IMG/VR virus record: IMGVR_UViG_2706794666_000005
Length of the DNA: 5,055 bases
Reading direction: 5' to 3' (one strand)
Origin: a virus
Taxonomy: Duplodnaviria; Heunggongvirae; Uroviricota; Caudoviricetes
The first letter of the stretch is position 1; each line of letters starts with the position of its first letter. The notes beneath the pieces are model-generated. The model was not told the origin of the DNA, ran no database searches, and saw nothing but the letters and a program-made list of their open reading frames with translations. The position numbers and the translations under genes were made by a program. Below are positions 1 through 5,055 of the stretch, in pieces.

Positions 1-3
1 TTC

Positions 4-36
4 AGGCCATCAGAGTTTTGCTGATGGCCTTTTTTC
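4..36 (+). terminator. Rho-independent terminator hairpin
   Basis: Perfect 10-bp inverted repeat, aggccatcag (4-13) pairing with ctgatggcct (21-30), 7-nt loop agttttg, followed by tttttcttt on the + strand. The reverse strand has no T-tract after the stem, so it is oriented for + strand transcription. Confidence 0.65.
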
Positions 37-92
37 TTTCCGATAGCACAGGTCTGTCGAAAAAAGGCCCCTATTAAGTTGTCAAGCATGTT

Positions 93-422
93 ATGACCCC
101 TGCGGGGTATAAAATGTATCAGATGGAAAAAATATCAACAGGCATTGCCTACGGCACCCTTGCCACTGTCGCCAGACAAATTAACCCGTACATCAAAGTC
201 GATATACCGGAAACAACGCGCGGCGCTCTTTACTCGTTCGTTTACAACGTGGGCGCTGGCAATTTCAGAACATCGACGCTTCTTCGCAAAATAAACCAGG
301 GCTATATCAAAGGCGCATGTGACCAGCTATGTCGCTGGACATATGCTGGCGGTAAGCAATGGAAAGGGCTGATGACCCGTCGTGAGATTGAGCGTGAAGT
401 CTGTTTGTGGGGGCAGCAATGA
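93..422 (+). CDS. Phage GH24 (T4-type) endolysin, C-terminal fragment only; probably N-terminally truncated and catalytically inactive
   Basis: The 109-aa product from about residue 23 onward ([48 protein letters not shown]...[13 protein letters not shown]) matches, from memory, the C-terminal part of phage 21 / DLP12-type lysozymes of about 165 aa. The first 22 residues ([22 protein letters not shown]) do not. An in-frame TAA at 75-77 prevents any upstream extension. The stop TGA (420-422) overlaps the Rz ATG (419-421) as ATGA, the classic R/Rz junction. Confidence 0.6.
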
Positions 423-883
423 GCAGAGTCACCGCGATTATCTCCGCTCTGGTTATCTGCATCATCGTCTGCCTGTCATGGGCTGTTAATCATTACCGTG
501 ATAACGCCATTACCTACAAAGAGCAGCGCGACAAAAACGCAAGAGAACTGAAGCTGGCGAACGCAACCATTACTGACATGCAGCAGAGACAGCGTGATGT
601 TAATGCACTCGATGCTAAATACACGAAGGAGTTAGCTGATGCGAAAGCTGAAAATGAAACTCTGCGCGCTGATGTTGCCGCTGGTCGTCGTCGGTTGCAC
701 ATCAAAGCAGTCTGTCAGTCAGTGCGTGAAGCCACCACCGCCTCCGGCGTGGATAATGCAACCAGCCCCCGACTGGCAGACACCGCTGAACGGGATTATT
801 TCACCCTCAGAGAGCGGCTGATGACGATGCAGATGCAACTGGAAGGGGCACAGGAGTATATCCGCACTCAGTGCATTAAGTAG
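419..883 (+). CDS. Rz: Rz-like i-spanin (inner-membrane spanin subunit)
   Basis: 154 aa from ATG 419: [34 protein letters not shown]... has an N-terminal transmembrane helix, a coiled-coil-like periplasmic region and a C-terminus closely resembling lambda Rz as I recall it. I prefer ATG 419 to the ORF-track GTG 407 because of the ATGA overlap with the upstream stop. Confidence 0.9.
639..821 (+). CDS. Rz1: Rz1-like o-spanin (outer-membrane lipoprotein), nested in the +1 frame of Rz
   Basis: 60 aa, [60 protein letters not shown]: signal peptide with lipobox LVVVGC, then a proline-rich mature peptide, near-identical in pattern to lambda Rz1. AAGGAG at 625-630 sits 8 nt upstream of ATG 639. Entirely embedded in Rz in a different frame. 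Confidence 0.88.
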
Positions 884-925
884 CCTTTTTATCGTGGTAA
901 ACATTTCGCAGGGTATGAGGTATTT

Positions 926-1276
926 ATGCCATCACTAATCCCACGTGCCTGCCGTAAGCGTGGATGTGCAGGTACAACCACAGACAGTTCGGGTTACTGC
1001 GATAAACATCGCGGTGAAGGCTGGGTGCAGCACCAGCGCGGACTGAGCCGCCACCAGCGTGGCTATGGCTCAAAATGGACGGTGATTCGTGCCCGTATTC
1101 TGAAGCGCGATAAAGGTCTGTGTCAGTTGTGTCTGCGTGTCGGTGTGGTGAGCGAGGCGAAAACCGTCGACCACATCATCCCGAAAGCGCATGGCGGAAC
1201 AGACGCAGACAGCAACCTGCAGAGTCTGTGCTGGCCCTGCCATAAAGCGAAAACAGCGCGCGAACGAATCCGGTGA
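926..1276 (+). CDS. HNH endonuclease, phage packaging-associated
   Basis: 116 aa. C-terminal HNH motif (CQLC...VDHIIPKAHGGTDADSNLQSLCWPCHKAK) with paired Cys zinc ligands, and a Cys-rich N-terminus (CRKRGCAGTTTDSSGYCDKH). GAGG at 917-920 lies 5 nt before ATG 926. Sits immediately upstream of the terminase genes, as in HK97-like phages. Confidence 0.9.
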   Translation: MPSLIPRACRKRGCAGTTTDSSGYCDKHRGEGWVQHQRGLSRHQRGYGSKWTVIRARILKRDKGLCQLCLRVGVVSEAKTVDHIIPKAHGGTDADSNLQSLCWPCHKAKTARERIR

Positions 1277-1294
1277 TAATTATTCTCACTTGTA

Positions 1295-1358
1295 GGGAGG
1301 GGCGGGGCAAATCCCTGTGACCTGACGTCTTCCGGACTGCCCGCCCCATCGTTTTTTT
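1295..1358. other. GC-rich dyad-symmetry element between HNH and terS; candidate cos region or terminator-like structure
   Basis: GGGGCGGG (1299-1306) is the inverted complement of CCCGCCCC (1340-1347), about 33 nt apart. Palindromes GACGTC (1324-1329) and TCCGGA (1331-1336) lie between the arms, and a T7 run follows at 1352-1358. The position matches where cos sits in HK97-like genomes. The function is inferred, not demonstrated. Confidence 0.3.
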
Positions 1359-1397
1359 ATACCCGCGAAAAATGAAATTTAACCAGGAGTGCCGCAT

Positions 1398-1892
1398 ATG
1401 GCTGGAACGGCGGGGCGTTCCGGGCGTCGCCCCAAGCCAACGGCGCGCAAGGCGCTGGCCGGAAACCCCGGCAAGCGAGCCCTGAACAAAGATGAACCTG
1501 TTTTTACGCCCATCAAAGGTGTTGAGCCACCAGAGTGGTTCGCTGAAGAAGATCTCCCTCTCGCCACGATCATGTGGCAACTGACAACCAAAGAACTCTG
1601 CGGTCAGGGCCTGCTGTGCGTGACTGACCTGGCGGTACTTGAGCGGTGGTGCGTGGCCTATGAGTTCTGGCGACGTGCCGTGAAAAATATTGCCATACAG
1701 GGCAACACCATCACCGGTGCAATGGGCGGCAGGGTCAAAAATCCGGAGCTGACCGCCAAAAAAGAACAGGAGTCCGAGATGAGCAGCACGGGGGCAATGC
1801 TCGGACTCGACCCCAGCAGCCGCCAGCGTCTGATTGGCCTGGCGGGGCAGAAGAAAGCCACTAACCCGTTTCTGAAAATTATCGAATCATGA
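1398..1892 (+). CDS. Terminase small subunit, P27 family
   Basis: 164 aa from ATG 1398, with AGGAG at 1384-1388 nine nt upstream. The basic N-terminus with the GNPGKR motif ([28 protein letters not shown]) is typical of P27-family TerS. The stop overlaps the terL start as ATGA (1889-1892). I reject the ORF-track GTG 1389 because it has no spacer from the SD. Confidence 0.88.
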
Positions 1893-3622
1893 GCCGGAAA
1901 TCTTACCCCAACGTAAATGCTGCAAATCAGTATGCCCGGGATGTCGTGCGCGGAAAGATTGTTGCCTGCCAGTTTGTGATTCAGGCCTGCCAGCGCCATC
2001 TTGATGACCTGATGGCGGAAAAAAGTAAGTCGTTTCGTTACCGCTTCGACAAGGACCTGGCTGAACGGGCCGCGAAATTTATTCAGCTGTTGCCGCACAC
2101 CAAGGGGGAGTGGGCATTCAAACGGATGCCCATCACGCTGGAGCCGTGGCAGCTATTTGTGATCTGCTGTGCGTTTGGCTGGGTCAATAAAGGCACCCGG
2201 TTGCGCCGCTTCCGGGAGGTGTACACCGAAATCCCCCGTAAGAACGGCAAATCAGCAATCTCTGCCGGTGTTGCCCTGTATTGTTTTGCCTGTGATAACG
2301 AGTTTGGCGCGGAAGTGTATTCCGGTGCCACGACAGAGAAACAGGCGTGGGAAGTCTTTCGCCCGGCGCGACTGATGTGTAAACGCACACCCATGCTGAC
2401 GGAAGCGTTCGGGATTGAGGTTAACGCCTCAAACATGAACCGTCCGGAGGATGGCGCGCGGTTTGAACCGCTGATCGGCAACCCAGGTGATGGTTCATCA
2501 CCCCACTGTGCCGTGGTTGATGAATATCACGAGCATGCCACCGATGCGCTTTATACCACAATGCTTACCGGGATGGGGGCGCGACGTCAGCCACTGATGT
2601 GGGCCATCACCACCGCCGGGTACAACATTGAGGGGCCGTGCTACGACAAGCGGCGGGAAGTCATCGAGATGCTCAACGGCTCGGTGCCTAACGATGAACT
2701 GTTCGGGATCATCTATACCGTTGATGAAGGTGACGACTGGACCGGCCCGCAGGTGCTGGAAAAAGCCAATCCAAATATTGGCGTGTCGGTTTATCGCGAA
2801 TTTTTGTTAAGTCAGCAGCAGCGTGCGAAAAATAACGCCCGTCTGGCAAACGTCTTTAAAACAAAACACCTCAATATCTGGGTGTCGGCGCGTTCGGCGT
2901 ATTTCAACTTGGTGAGCTGGCAGAGCTGCGAGGATAAATCACTGACCCTTGAGCAGTTCGAGGGGCAGCCGTGCATTCTGGCCTTTGACCTGGCGCGTAA
3001 GCTGGATATGAACAGCATGGCGCGACTTTATACCCGCGAGATTGACGGTAAAACGCATTACTACAGTGTGGCCCCGCGTTTCTGGGTACCGTATGACACG
3101 GTGTACAGCGTCGAGAAAAATGAAGATCGACGGACAGCCGAACGCTTTCAGAAATGGGTGGAAATGGGCGTTCTGACCGTTACCGATGGTGCGGAGGTGG
3201 ATTATCGCTACATCCTCGAGGAGGCCAAAGCGGCGAACAAAATCAGCCCGGTCAGTGAGTCACCCATCGACCCCTTCGGGGCGACCGGGTTGTCACATGA
3301 CCTTGCTGATGAAGACCTGAATCCCGTCACTATCGTCCAGAACTTCACCAATATGTCCGATCCGATGAAAGAGCTGGAAGCAGCGATTGAATCGGGACGT
3401 TTTCATCATGACGGCAATCCCATCATGACCTGGTGTATCGGCAACGTGGTCGGCAAAAACATGCCGGGTAACGATGATGTGGTGAAACCCGTCAAAGAGC
3501 AGGCGGAAAACAAAATCGATGGTGCAGTTGCGCTGATTATGGCGGTTGGCAGAGCCATGCTGTACGAGAAAGAAGACACGCTGTCTGACCACATTGAGTC
3601 CTACGGGATCCGCTCGCTTTAA
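1889..3622 (+). CDS. Terminase large subunit (ATPase/nuclease)
   Basis: 577 aa. Walker A-like IPRKNGKS at nt 2231-2254, Walker B-like CAVVDEYHE, and a C-terminal nuclease-like region with conserved acidic residues ([24 protein letters not shown]). Size and position fit a Terminase_1-type TerL. Translationally coupled to terS. Confidence 0.92.
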
Positions 3623-3633
3623 CTGAGGTAATT

Positions 3634-3816
3634 ATGATCATGCTGATTCTCGCGCCTCTGGTGGGCGTGCTGGGTGCGCTTTTGCTGGCGTATGGTGCCT
3701 GGCTGATTTATCCCCCGGCGGGTTTTGTTGTTGCCGGGGCGCTGTGCCTGTTCTGGTCGTGGCTGGTGGCGCGATATCTCGACCGTACACGGCAGTCTGT
3801 CGGCGGAGGTAAATAG
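3634..3816 (+). CDS. Small hypothetical membrane protein (two predicted transmembrane helices)
   Basis: 60 aa, [60 protein letters not shown]: two hydrophobic helices and a basic C-terminal tail. GAGGT at 3625-3629 lies 4 nt before ATG 3634. Codon usage is host-like (ctg, gcg, ggt, gtg). Its last codons carry the SD for the downstream portal start. Confidence 0.6.
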
Positions 3817-4972
3817 TGTTCTTTTCGGGATTATTTCAACGAAAAAGCGATGTGCCGGTGACCACGCCAGCAGAACTGCTGATGCTATCGGGCTGTCATA
3901 CGACACCTATACCGGAAAGCGGATCAGTAGCCAGCGGGCCATGCGCCTGACGGCGGTCTATTCTTGCGTCAGGGTGCTGGCAGAGTCTGTTGGTATGCTG
4001 CCCTGCAGTCTCTACAAAATCAGCGGTACCCTGAAAACACGGGCGGTGGATGAACGACTGCATAAGTTGGTTTCGGCAAAACCTAATGGCTACATGACAC
4101 CGCAGGAATTCTGGGAGCTGGTTATTGTCTGCCTGTGTCTACGGGGGAATTTTTACGCCTACAAGGTAAAGGCACTGGGAGAAGTGGTGGAGCTTCTTCC
4201 GATAGATCCGGGCTGTGTGGAACCGAAGCTGAACAGCCAGTGGCAGCCGGTTTATCAGGTGACGTTTCCGGATGGTTCCGTGGATGTGTTGACCCAGAAT
4301 GAAATCTGGCATGTGCGCACCCTGACGCTGGATGGACTTGTCGGGCTGAATCCCATTGCGTATGCGCGTGAGGCCATTTCACTGGCAGCGGCAACCGAGG
4401 AGCACGGTGCCAGGTTGTTTAGTAATGGTGCGGTGACATCCGGTGTGTTGCGTACGGAACAAAAGCTCACGCCGGATGCTTACGAGCGTCTGAAGAAAGA
4501 TTTTGAGGAGTGTCACACGGGGCTTGGCAATGCTCACCGCCCGATGATTCTGGAAATGGGGCTGGACTGGAAGTCGATGGCGCTGAACGCCGAGGACAGT
4601 CAGTTCCTGGAAACCCGCAAGTTTCAGCTGGAAGAAATCTGTCGTCTGTTCCGGGTGCCGTTGCACATGGTGCAGAACACCGATCGCGCCACCTTCAACA
4701 ATATCGAAGAGCTGGGGCTGGGATTTATCAACTATTCACTGGTGCCGTATCTGACCCGCATCGAACAGCGGATCAACACCGGACTGGTACGAAAAAGTAA
4801 GCAGGGCGTTTATTACGCCAAATTTAACGCCGGGGCGTTACTGCGCGGGGATATGAAGTCCCGTTTTGAAGCCTACGCCACCGGGATCAACTGGGGAATT
4901 TACTCTTCCAATGACTGCCGCGACCTGGAAGATATGAATCCGCGTCCCGGTGGTGTAATGCCGATCAGTTAA
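3816..4972 (+). CDS. Portal protein, HK97 family; start and body are in different frames as read (apparent 1-nt frame break near 3890-3893)
   Basis: The body (frame 2, to stop 4970-4972) has HK97-portal hallmarks: RLTAVYSCVRVLAESVGMLPCSLYK near the N-terminus and FLETRKFQLEEICRLFRVPLHMV. The best start signal is GTG 3816 in frame 0, with a perfect GGAGG (3805-3809) 6 nt upstream, overlapping the upstream stop as TAGTG. Frame 0 gives MFFSGLFQRKSDVPVTTPAELLMLSG... but hits TGA at 3948-3950. The span is not a multiple of 3. Confidence 0.8.
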
Positions 4973-5004
4973 GGATCAGTTGACCGATCCAGTGGCTGTG
5001 TAAG

Positions 5005-5039
5005 AATCCGGAAACGCTCACTTGTTTCCGGATTTTTTT
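5005..5039 (+). terminator. Rho-independent terminator downstream of portal
   Basis: atccggaaac (5006-5015) pairs perfectly with gtttccggat (5024-5033), 8-nt loop gctcactt, followed by a T-run (5034-5039). The T-tract is present only in the + orientation. Confidence 0.7.
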
Positions 5040-5055
5040 ATGCACATTGGACAGG

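Follow-up and report, generated by a model that had tools for sequence, protein, structure and literature searches.

Does a stretch of late phage genes with a damaged lysozyme gene and a broken portal gene belong to a prophage that can still form virions or to a cryptic one, and which of its lesions decides the matter? Here we address this question for a stretch of 5,055 bp (hereafter the window), which is the whole of draft contig CWSX01000201.1 (assembly GCA_001248295.1). The original prediction, which was made from the letters of the window, had read it as part of a defective (cryptic) prophage on account of two lesions, an endolysin without its catalytic domain and a frame break in the portal gene. 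We conclude, with a probability of about 95%, that the window comes from Shigella sonnei and represents the late-gene end of a lambdoid/HK97-like prophage remnant that is non-viable and has been eroded by IS elements. The defective state is supported by a portal gene that is frameshifted and cut by IS4 and by complete genomes without head or tail genes at this place. Both of the predicted lesions exist in the window; however, the decisive ones are the truncation by IS4, which the first reading had missed, and the loss of all morphogenesis genes.

The window was compared with chromosome-scale loci of S. sonnei, whose chromosomes with this phage-derived gene set measure 4.8-5.0 Mb. Positions 158-5055 align without gaps and with 99.96% identity to five of the retrieved loci, including that of strain Ss046 (CP000038.1); among the other loci, L008 and L011 have one gap each, and L009 is 98.65% identical. 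Ss046 and other complete S. sonnei genomes have the same portal frameshift, the same IS4 junction and the same gene order as the window. The remnant has been public in S. sonnei genomes since Ss046, and its reading as a defective prophage is already known and ordinary.

The lysis, HNH, terminase and portal genes of the window have Pfam and PHROG matches, and their DNA is 94-95% identical to that of Sf phages (SfIV and SfII). The features to the right of the lysis genes are as follows.

926-1276, plus strand: HNH endonuclease of 116 aa, a packaging accessory factor (PF01844, PF14279, phrog_144)
1331-1347, no strand: cos-like site between HNH and terS, with approximate coordinates from alignment to SfIV and phiP27
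1398-1892, plus strand: small terminase subunit TerS of the P27 family, 164 aa, intact (PF05119)
1889-3622, plus strand: large terminase subunit TerL, 577 aa, intact (PF03354, PF20441)
3634-3816, plus strand: YmfR-like membrane protein of 60 aa (phrog_502)
3816-4957, plus strand: portal pseudogene with GTG start at 3816 and the PF04860 core present, frameshifted and cut by IS4
4958-5055, plus strand: left end of IS4, with terminal repeat TAATGCCGATCAG..., a hairpin and the transposase start ATG at 5040, from comparison with IS4

The packaging module has the HNH-cos-TerS-TerL arrangement of the phiP27/SfIV type, and PF01844, PF05119, PF03354 and PF20441 are each matched almost from end to end. 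The order HNH, cos, TerS (P27 family), TerL, membrane protein and portal is shared by SfIV, SfII, SfI and phiP27, in whose genomes an intact portal gene of 413 codons is followed by protease and capsid genes, whereas the window has a portal gene with a frameshift and an IS4 truncation and lacks the remainder. The cos-like site aligns with the left genome end of SfIV (position 1 of the record corresponds to window 1331) and with the annotated cos of phiP27. TerS and TerL are identical to their SfIV counterparts at 161 of 164 and 574 of 577 residues, respectively; the membrane protein shares 58 of its 60 residues with YmfR of the prophage in Escherichia coli BE311, and the HNH protein equals the BE311 homologue in length. 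As had been predicted, terS, terL, HNH and the Rz/Rz1 pair are intact, i.e. full length and with complete Pfam domains, and their products have 98-99.5% amino-acid identity to the SfIV proteins; the membrane protein is likewise full length.

The portal gene is broken twice. One G is absent between positions 3877 and 3878 when compared with phage SfIV and the BE311 prophage, which confirms the predicted frame break as a 1-nt deletion in codon 21. The original frame meets a stop at 3948-3950, and the rest of the gene can be read in a different frame (ORF 3725-4972, first ATG at 3941). If the missing base is restored, the portal frame is open for 381 codons, 348 of which are identical to those of the SfIV portal. 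The homology then ends at 4957, so that the last 32 of 413 codons are gone. A programmed frameshift was considered and rejected: the homologues in SfIV, phiP27 and E. coli are one uninterrupted ORF, and the window lacks one G. The reservation that the portal lesion might be a sequencing error does not hold, because all 12 chromosome-scale S. sonnei loci (L005-L012, L018-L021) and six IMG/VR contigs (L026-L031) have exactly the same sequence around the missing base. In the index of the assembly collection, the remnant ORF of 343 aa, whose end lies within IS4, appears in 1,695 blocks. The frameshift context had no match among the GTDB representatives, probably because no S. sonnei genome with this element is used as a species representative.

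The window stops inside IS4, whose terminal inverted repeat is present, and, as far as the alignment reaches, positions 4958-5055 show no difference from the end of an IS4 copy in E. coli 14EC029. The full transposase (442 aa) comes next in complete S. sonnei genomes, where it is in some cases cut by another IS, and 3' of IS4 lie an IS3-family element and then either bamE-recN-nadK-grpE or raiA-pheA-tyrA-aroF. Protease, capsid, connector and tail genes downstream of the portal were found in none of the complete S. sonnei genomes examined, whereas intact relatives have the protease and major capsid genes directly 3' of the portal. Since the IS4 junction is followed only by IS and host genes, the element is defective. 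IS4 is one of five IS that have expanded in all Shigella species and has caused widespread gene loss, and IS-driven decay of prophages and other genes is well documented in Shigella (PMC7373316).

The whole-prophage annotation suggested with the original prediction was carried out for up to 10 kb on either side of the locus, where no integrase, repressor, protease, capsid or tail genes were called and host genes follow. Beyond 10 kb upstream there could be an integrase or a repressor, yet such genes would not restore viability. The upstream order is a DNA-invertase fragment (62 aa), an IS, a DnaB-like gene, RusA, Q, an anti-repressor, four tRNA genes and the lysis genes. The IS3-family element on this side truncates the DnaB-like replication gene, whose PHROG profile is matched only from position 155.

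The full-length packaging and spanin genes, their close similarity to those of SfIV, which is an active phage, and the draft status of the contig might be taken to mean that the prophage is intact and inducible and that its lesions are errors of sequencing or assembly. We consider the chance of this to be negligible, as 12 chromosome-scale assemblies of S. sonnei, made in different projects, agree exactly in both the frameshift and the IS4 junction, the remnant ORF is indexed many times over, and in none of the complete genomes do head or tail genes follow; the complete-genome context already refutes it.

In the favored reading of a non-viable remnant, the ancestor was a phage with a packaging and head module of the SfIV/SfII/phiP27 type and a P21-type lysis cassette. 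In the changes common to the examined S. sonnei, codon 21 of the portal gene lost one base and IS4 entered after codon 381; everything 3' of IS4 (protease, capsid, connectors and tail) was lost, presumably by IS-mediated deletion or rearrangement, and on the other side the IS3-family element truncated the replication gene. With the portal broken and the morphogenesis genes lost, no virion is possible. The intact appearance of TerS, TerL, HNH and Rz/Rz1 probably reflects a decay that is recent and has proceeded through IS rather than through point mutations, and their intactness would be explicable without selection.

A retained function is nevertheless conceivable. The remaining cos-HNH-TerS-TerL stretch, in most strains together with the lysis cassette, might still act by cutting or packaging DNA with heads supplied by a related Sf-type phage, or by interfering with such phages. 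The cos-like site is identical to the left end of SfIV, the terminase hardly differs from the SfIV one, and the exact TerL protein appears in 4,305 blocks of the assembly index. S. sonnei, however, is a very young clone, in which intact ORFs need no selection, and high protein identity beside 95% DNA identity points to selection in the phage ancestors. Moreover, both terS and terL are broken in the L021 assembly, possibly by a read error. We therefore regard a retained function as very improbable.

As a non-viable remnant, the element would be the same kind of object as e14 (with ymfR and the portal pseudogene beeE), DLP12 and Qin of E. coli K-12, which are partly deleted, cryptic lambdoid or HK97-like prophages with a few intact late genes beside pseudogenes. 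It differs from these in element and host lineage, and its erosion proceeded via IS4, IS3-family and ISEc20-like elements.

The lysis region, in which the second predicted lesion lies, comprises the following features.

1-59, plus strand: intergenic late-region DNA 5' of the holin gene, with a terminator-like hairpin at 4-30 followed by a T-run
60-113, minus strand: six A's (60-65) in place of a G-run and about 48 nt of an ISEc20-like IS110-family end (66-113)
114-158, plus strand: first 15 codons of a class II (S21-type) holin gene, 100% identical to positions 7822-7866 of the Ss046 locus (L012)
159-422, plus strand: 3' part of a SAR-endolysin (GH24 lysozyme) gene, codons 79-165, in frame with the holin stub
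419-883, plus strand: Rz spanin (i-spanin) of 154 aa, full length (PF03245, positions 1-125 of 126)
639-821, plus strand: Rz1 lipoprotein (o-spanin) of 60 aa, within Rz in the +1 frame (PF06085, positions 1-40 of 41)

Compared with Ss046, the window has a 404-bp deletion that creates an in-frame fusion of holin codons 1-15 with lysozyme codons 79-165, a 54-nt replacement (A6 and the ISEc20-like fragment) 5' of the holin gene, and, in what remains of the lysozyme gene, the substitutions 303 G>T (Asp>Tyr) and 330 C>T (Arg>Cys). All differences are thus confined to the first 330 nt, adjoining the contig end. The ORF at 93-422 matches only positions 47-125 of 125 of the Phage_lysozyme profile (PF00959), whereas the intact S. 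sonnei lysozyme of 165 aa matches positions 3-125. The deletion takes out the SAR helix and residues E35, D44 and T50 (counted directly on the intact Ss046 lysozyme), which we take to be the catalytic triad, as in R21. It also removes the other 56 holin codons (16-71), and the intact 71-aa holin of Ss046 matches positions 1-63 of 64 of PF04971. Judged by what is left of them, neither the holin nor the lysozyme gene of the window can work. The predicted endolysin without a catalytic domain is thus truncated in the window, but through a deletion that fuses it to the holin, destroys the holin as well and occurs on this contig only. The cassette is of the P21 type (S21 holin and R21 endolysin; RrrD, EssD and RzpD of E. 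coli; Rz/Rz1), to which the complete Rz and Rz1, the holin start and the C-terminal part of the lysozyme all match. Complete S. sonnei versions have PF04971 and the full PF00959, whereas the window lacks holin codons 16-71 and lysozyme codons 1-78.

The fusion ORF was found on a single contig, the window itself; all 15 chromosome-scale loci retrieved have an intact holin of 68-71 aa and an intact lysozyme of 165 aa adjoining this terminase. Three junctions are private to the window (59/60, 113/114 and 158/159) and were not found in IMG/VR, and the holin-lysozyme junction also had no match in GTDB species representatives or JGI metagenomes. The lesion may therefore be a strain-specific event or an assembly chimera, and this prophage is possibly not its owner.

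The T/T allele at 303 and 330 is common to the paralogous cassettes L032-L034 and draft contig L028, so that the two substitutions could be rejected as random errors; no complete E. coli genome had both of them in this context (best match, 99.2%). Window positions 158-469 are identical to the paralogous cassette and positions 331-5055 to the Ss046 locus, and the switch between alleles falls inside a 139-nt stretch (331-469) that is identical between the paralogues. For this reason, the lysis lesion may not be physically linked to the terminase-portal remnant.

The flanking DNA on the left is shared with known loci. Positions 1-59 are 100% identical to positions 7752-7810 of the Ss046 locus, and the same sequence lies just 5' of a class II holin gene in E. 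coli CFSAN029787. At the place of the window's 60-113, complete S. sonnei loci have 11 nt. The ISEc20-like fragment contains the transposase stop codon (91-93, minus strand) and the last six or so codons, and the interior of the IS is joined to the holin ATG; only these 48 nt of one end of the IS110-family element are present. Annotated copies of the ISEc20 family in E. coli match the fragment at 94.5%, and IMG/VR contains exact 33-nt matches to it. One related contig (L014) has a complete ISEc20-like copy of about 1.46 kb at the same G-run 5' of the holin gene, and another (L015) has the same junction and reaches about 620 nt into the element. A promoter scan of 60-113 found nothing; TTGTCA and TATAAA hexamers lie 23 nt apart. 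The stretch was also considered as the native promoter region of another holin allele, which was rejected because it is the end of an ISEc20-like element. ISEc20 is among the 12 IS of S. sonnei 53G (PMC7373316).

Two accounts of bases 1-330 have to be weighed. According to the first, the A-run, the IS fragment, the fusion and the two substitutions are a short-read chimera or belong to another, paralogous remnant, and the terminase-portal prophage would then have an intact holin and endolysin in this strain. We give this somewhat less than an even chance. It would account for the intact genes of all the chromosome-scale loci, the private junctions, the clustering of differences by the contig end and a paralogous allele that switches within an identical stretch; in addition, foreign alleles of the same gene also occur at the left ends of draft contigs L026 and L028, and the six A's in place of the G-run resemble an error. 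Against a chimera, microhomology at the junctions is at most 1 nt, and a de Bruijn assembler needs reads that span the join. Furthermore, the separate contig L028 couples the T/T allele to the same terminase, which, for the substitutions at least, speaks for a recombinant lineage that really exists, and a full ISEc20-like copy is truly at this site in related contigs.

According to the second account, which we consider unlikely, the lesion is real. An ISEc20-like element would have inserted at its preferred G-run 5' of a holin-endolysin pair that was still lethal in a dead prophage, and a multi-breakpoint, microhomology-poor deletion with gene conversion from the paralogous cassette would then have taken out the bulk of the IS and of the holin gene together with the catalytic half of the endolysin. 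If true, this would represent selection disarming the residual lysis cassette of a dead prophage. Whether real or chimeric, the 404-bp deletion and the ISEc20-like fragment would be an additional wreckage of the lysis cassette in this assembly, and the reading as a non-viable remnant is carried by the portal and the missing morphogenesis genes.

The biological weight of these results is small, and the lesson is methodological. The weighting of evidence in the original prediction was reversed, as it doubted the portal lesion, which is lineage-wide, and trusted the endolysin lesion, which is private to one draft contig. What resembles a sequencing error in a reading frame may be a pseudogene that is fixed across a whole lineage. 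A truncation that looks clean may be the feature to distrust when it lies in a multi-copy phage repeat, close to where a short-read contig ends. What decided the matter here, IS4 at the contig edge and the absence of all structural genes, sat at or outside the border of the window.

Within the lysis cassette, the Rz protein is identical to RzpD of E. coli BE311 at 136 of 154 residues, and the index of the assembly collection lists this exact sequence in 4,291 blocks.

The window is the entire contig CWSX01000201.1 (5,055 bp) of the draft assembly GCA_001248295.1. Positions 158-5055 match the loci of five complete Shigella sonnei chromosomes, including that of strain Ss046 (CP000038.1), with 99.96% identity, two mismatches and no gaps; the top matches among complete E. 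coli genomes reach only ~93%, and the closest phages, SfIV and SfII, share 94-95% in the packaging region alone. The prophage remnant is of a kind already known, and its lineage had been sequenced before.

Features of the window (plus strand throughout)
93/114-422, plus, holin-lysozyme fusion ORF (Pfam lysozyme profile and comparison with Ss046)
419-883, plus, Rz, full length
639-821, plus, Rz1, embedded within Rz, full length
926-1276, plus, HNH endonuclease, full length
~1331-1347, listed with the plus-strand set, cos-like site, aligned to the SfIV left end
1398-1892, plus, TerS, P27 family, 161/164 identical to SfIV
1889-3622, plus, TerL, 574/577 identical to SfIV
3634-3816, plus, YmfR-like membrane protein, full length
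from GTG 3816, plus, portal, homology to 4957
from 4958, plus, IS4, terminal repeat, transposase ATG at 5040

The original prediction of a defective prophage, made from an endolysin without its catalytic domain and a portal gene with a frame break, is supported, and both lesions are present; what it overlooked is the IS4 cut at 4958. At this junction the portal gene loses its final 32 codons (of 413), and five IS-encoded residues take their place. In intact relatives the portal gene is directly followed by genes for the prohead protease and the major capsid protein, whereas none follow it in the complete S. sonnei genomes examined. What decides for defectiveness is the truncation by IS4 together with the lack of every morphogenesis gene.

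In complete genomes, an IS3-family element comes after IS4, then the host genes bamE-recN-nadK-grpE, or raiA-pheL-pheA-tyrA-aroF in rearranged strains; chromosomal loci L008-L010 differ in this respect from L005-L007, L011 and L012, some having raiA-pheA-tyrA-aroF and others the IS3-family arrangement. Some strains have a second IS that cuts IS4 short. Together these differences point to IS-mediated inversions or deletions at the locus. The upstream stretch runs from a 62-aa invertase fragment through a functionally uncharacterised phage protein, an IS3-family element, a DnaB-like helicase (profile match beginning only at position 155), RusA, Q, an anti-repressor and four tRNA genes to the lysis cassette. 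The tRNA genes (Met-CAT, Arg-TCT, Thr-TGT, Gly-TCC; L023, 8301-8611) lie between anti-repressor and holin in complete S. sonnei genomes, and a comparable group of four tRNA genes precedes the class II holin gene in E. coli CFSAN029787. Judged from the gene order on both sides, the element is a remnant of ~10 kb that IS elements delimit and have eroded. This picture agrees with the IS expansion described for Shigella: IS4 belongs to the five expanded IS, and ISEc20 is among the 12 present in S. sonnei 53G (PMC7373316).

Alignment with the portals of SfIV and E. coli BE311 places one missing G between 3877 and 3878, in portal codon 21; adding one base back opens a 381-codon frame that agrees with SfIV at 348 codons. 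The exact 35-nt deletion context recurred in six IMG/VR contigs as well as in 12/12 of the chromosome-scale S. sonnei loci retrieved, which rules out a read error, and the index of the assembly collection lists the 343-aa downstream ORF in 1,695 blocks; the break is thus a pseudogene mutation that has become fixed. By itself it clips only ~20 N-terminal codons, and all of the Pfam portal domain (PF04860, 2-321 of its 321 positions) falls within the post-frameshift ORF (3725-4972). The 343-aa product predicted from ATG 3941 would miss only the extreme N- and C-termini.

Relative to Ss046, a 404-bp deletion joins class II holin codons 1-15 (114-158) in frame to the lysozyme from codon 79 onward (from 159), destroying the holin as well. 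The fusion ORF matches the Pfam lysozyme profile only at positions 47-125 (3-125 in the intact 165-aa S. sonnei protein) and has lost the SAR helix along with E35, D44 and T50 (Ss046 numbering), the residues that studies of R21 identify as the catalytic triad. Just 5' of the holin stub, 54 nt (60-113) replace 11 reference nt: six A's for a G-run, then a 48-nt terminal piece of an ISEc20-like IS110-family element that breaks off within the IS. The six A's (60-65), where related sequences have five to seven G's, are an odd change, suggesting error or a complex event rather than point mutation. IMG/VR contig L014 (reverse strand, 4312-5770) carries a full ISEc20-like copy of ~1.46 kb at precisely that G-run, 'ctgtcGGGGG' upstream of the class II holin, and contig L015 has the same junction, ending ~620 nt into the element. 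Further copies stand beside G-runs at two unrelated sites (L016; L017, 2496-3954), and this recurrence suggests a sequence-specific target. The DNA beyond the IS in L014 is not holin, so a rearrangement occurred there.

The chances that this lysis lesion is real or an assembly chimera are roughly even. No difference from Ss046 lies beyond nt 330, the fusion ORF is known from this single contig, its junctions had no match in the collections scanned, and holin and lysozyme are intact in 15/15 chromosome-scale loci retrieved. At 303 and 330 the window has T, the allele that a paralogous lysis cassette carries (L032-L034), and two other draft contigs, L026 and L028, likewise show foreign alleles of this gene at their left ends. 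However, L028 independently ties the T/T allele to the same terminase, and a graph assembler is not expected to invent joins with 1 nt of microhomology. Since 158-469 is identical to the paralogous cassette and 331-5055 to the Ss046 locus, the allele switch falls within the 139-nt shared stretch (331-469), through gene conversion between prophage remnants or else a cross-over during assembly. The earlier caveat of a sequencing error in the portal was therefore misplaced: that lesion is lineage-wide, and the doubt belongs to the endolysin.

Rz/Rz1, HNH, terS and terL are intact, as predicted, given their full lengths and the SfIV identities; the cos region matches the left end of SfIV exactly. 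S. sonnei is a young clone, so no selection need be invoked to explain why these genes are intact. A mosaic boundary lies at 883-1331: HNH is only 92/116 identical to its E. coli BE311 homologue, against 98-99% for TerS and TerL, phage DNA matches start at 1048, 1289 or 1331, and the window lacks the bor/iss gene that BE311 carries between Rz and HNH. In one chromosome-scale S. sonnei assembly (L021, JBEAAD010000003.1, 7459-9682) terS is split into 127 + 37 aa and terL into 194 + 341 aa, and recN is split too, more likely through assembly indel error than through further decay.
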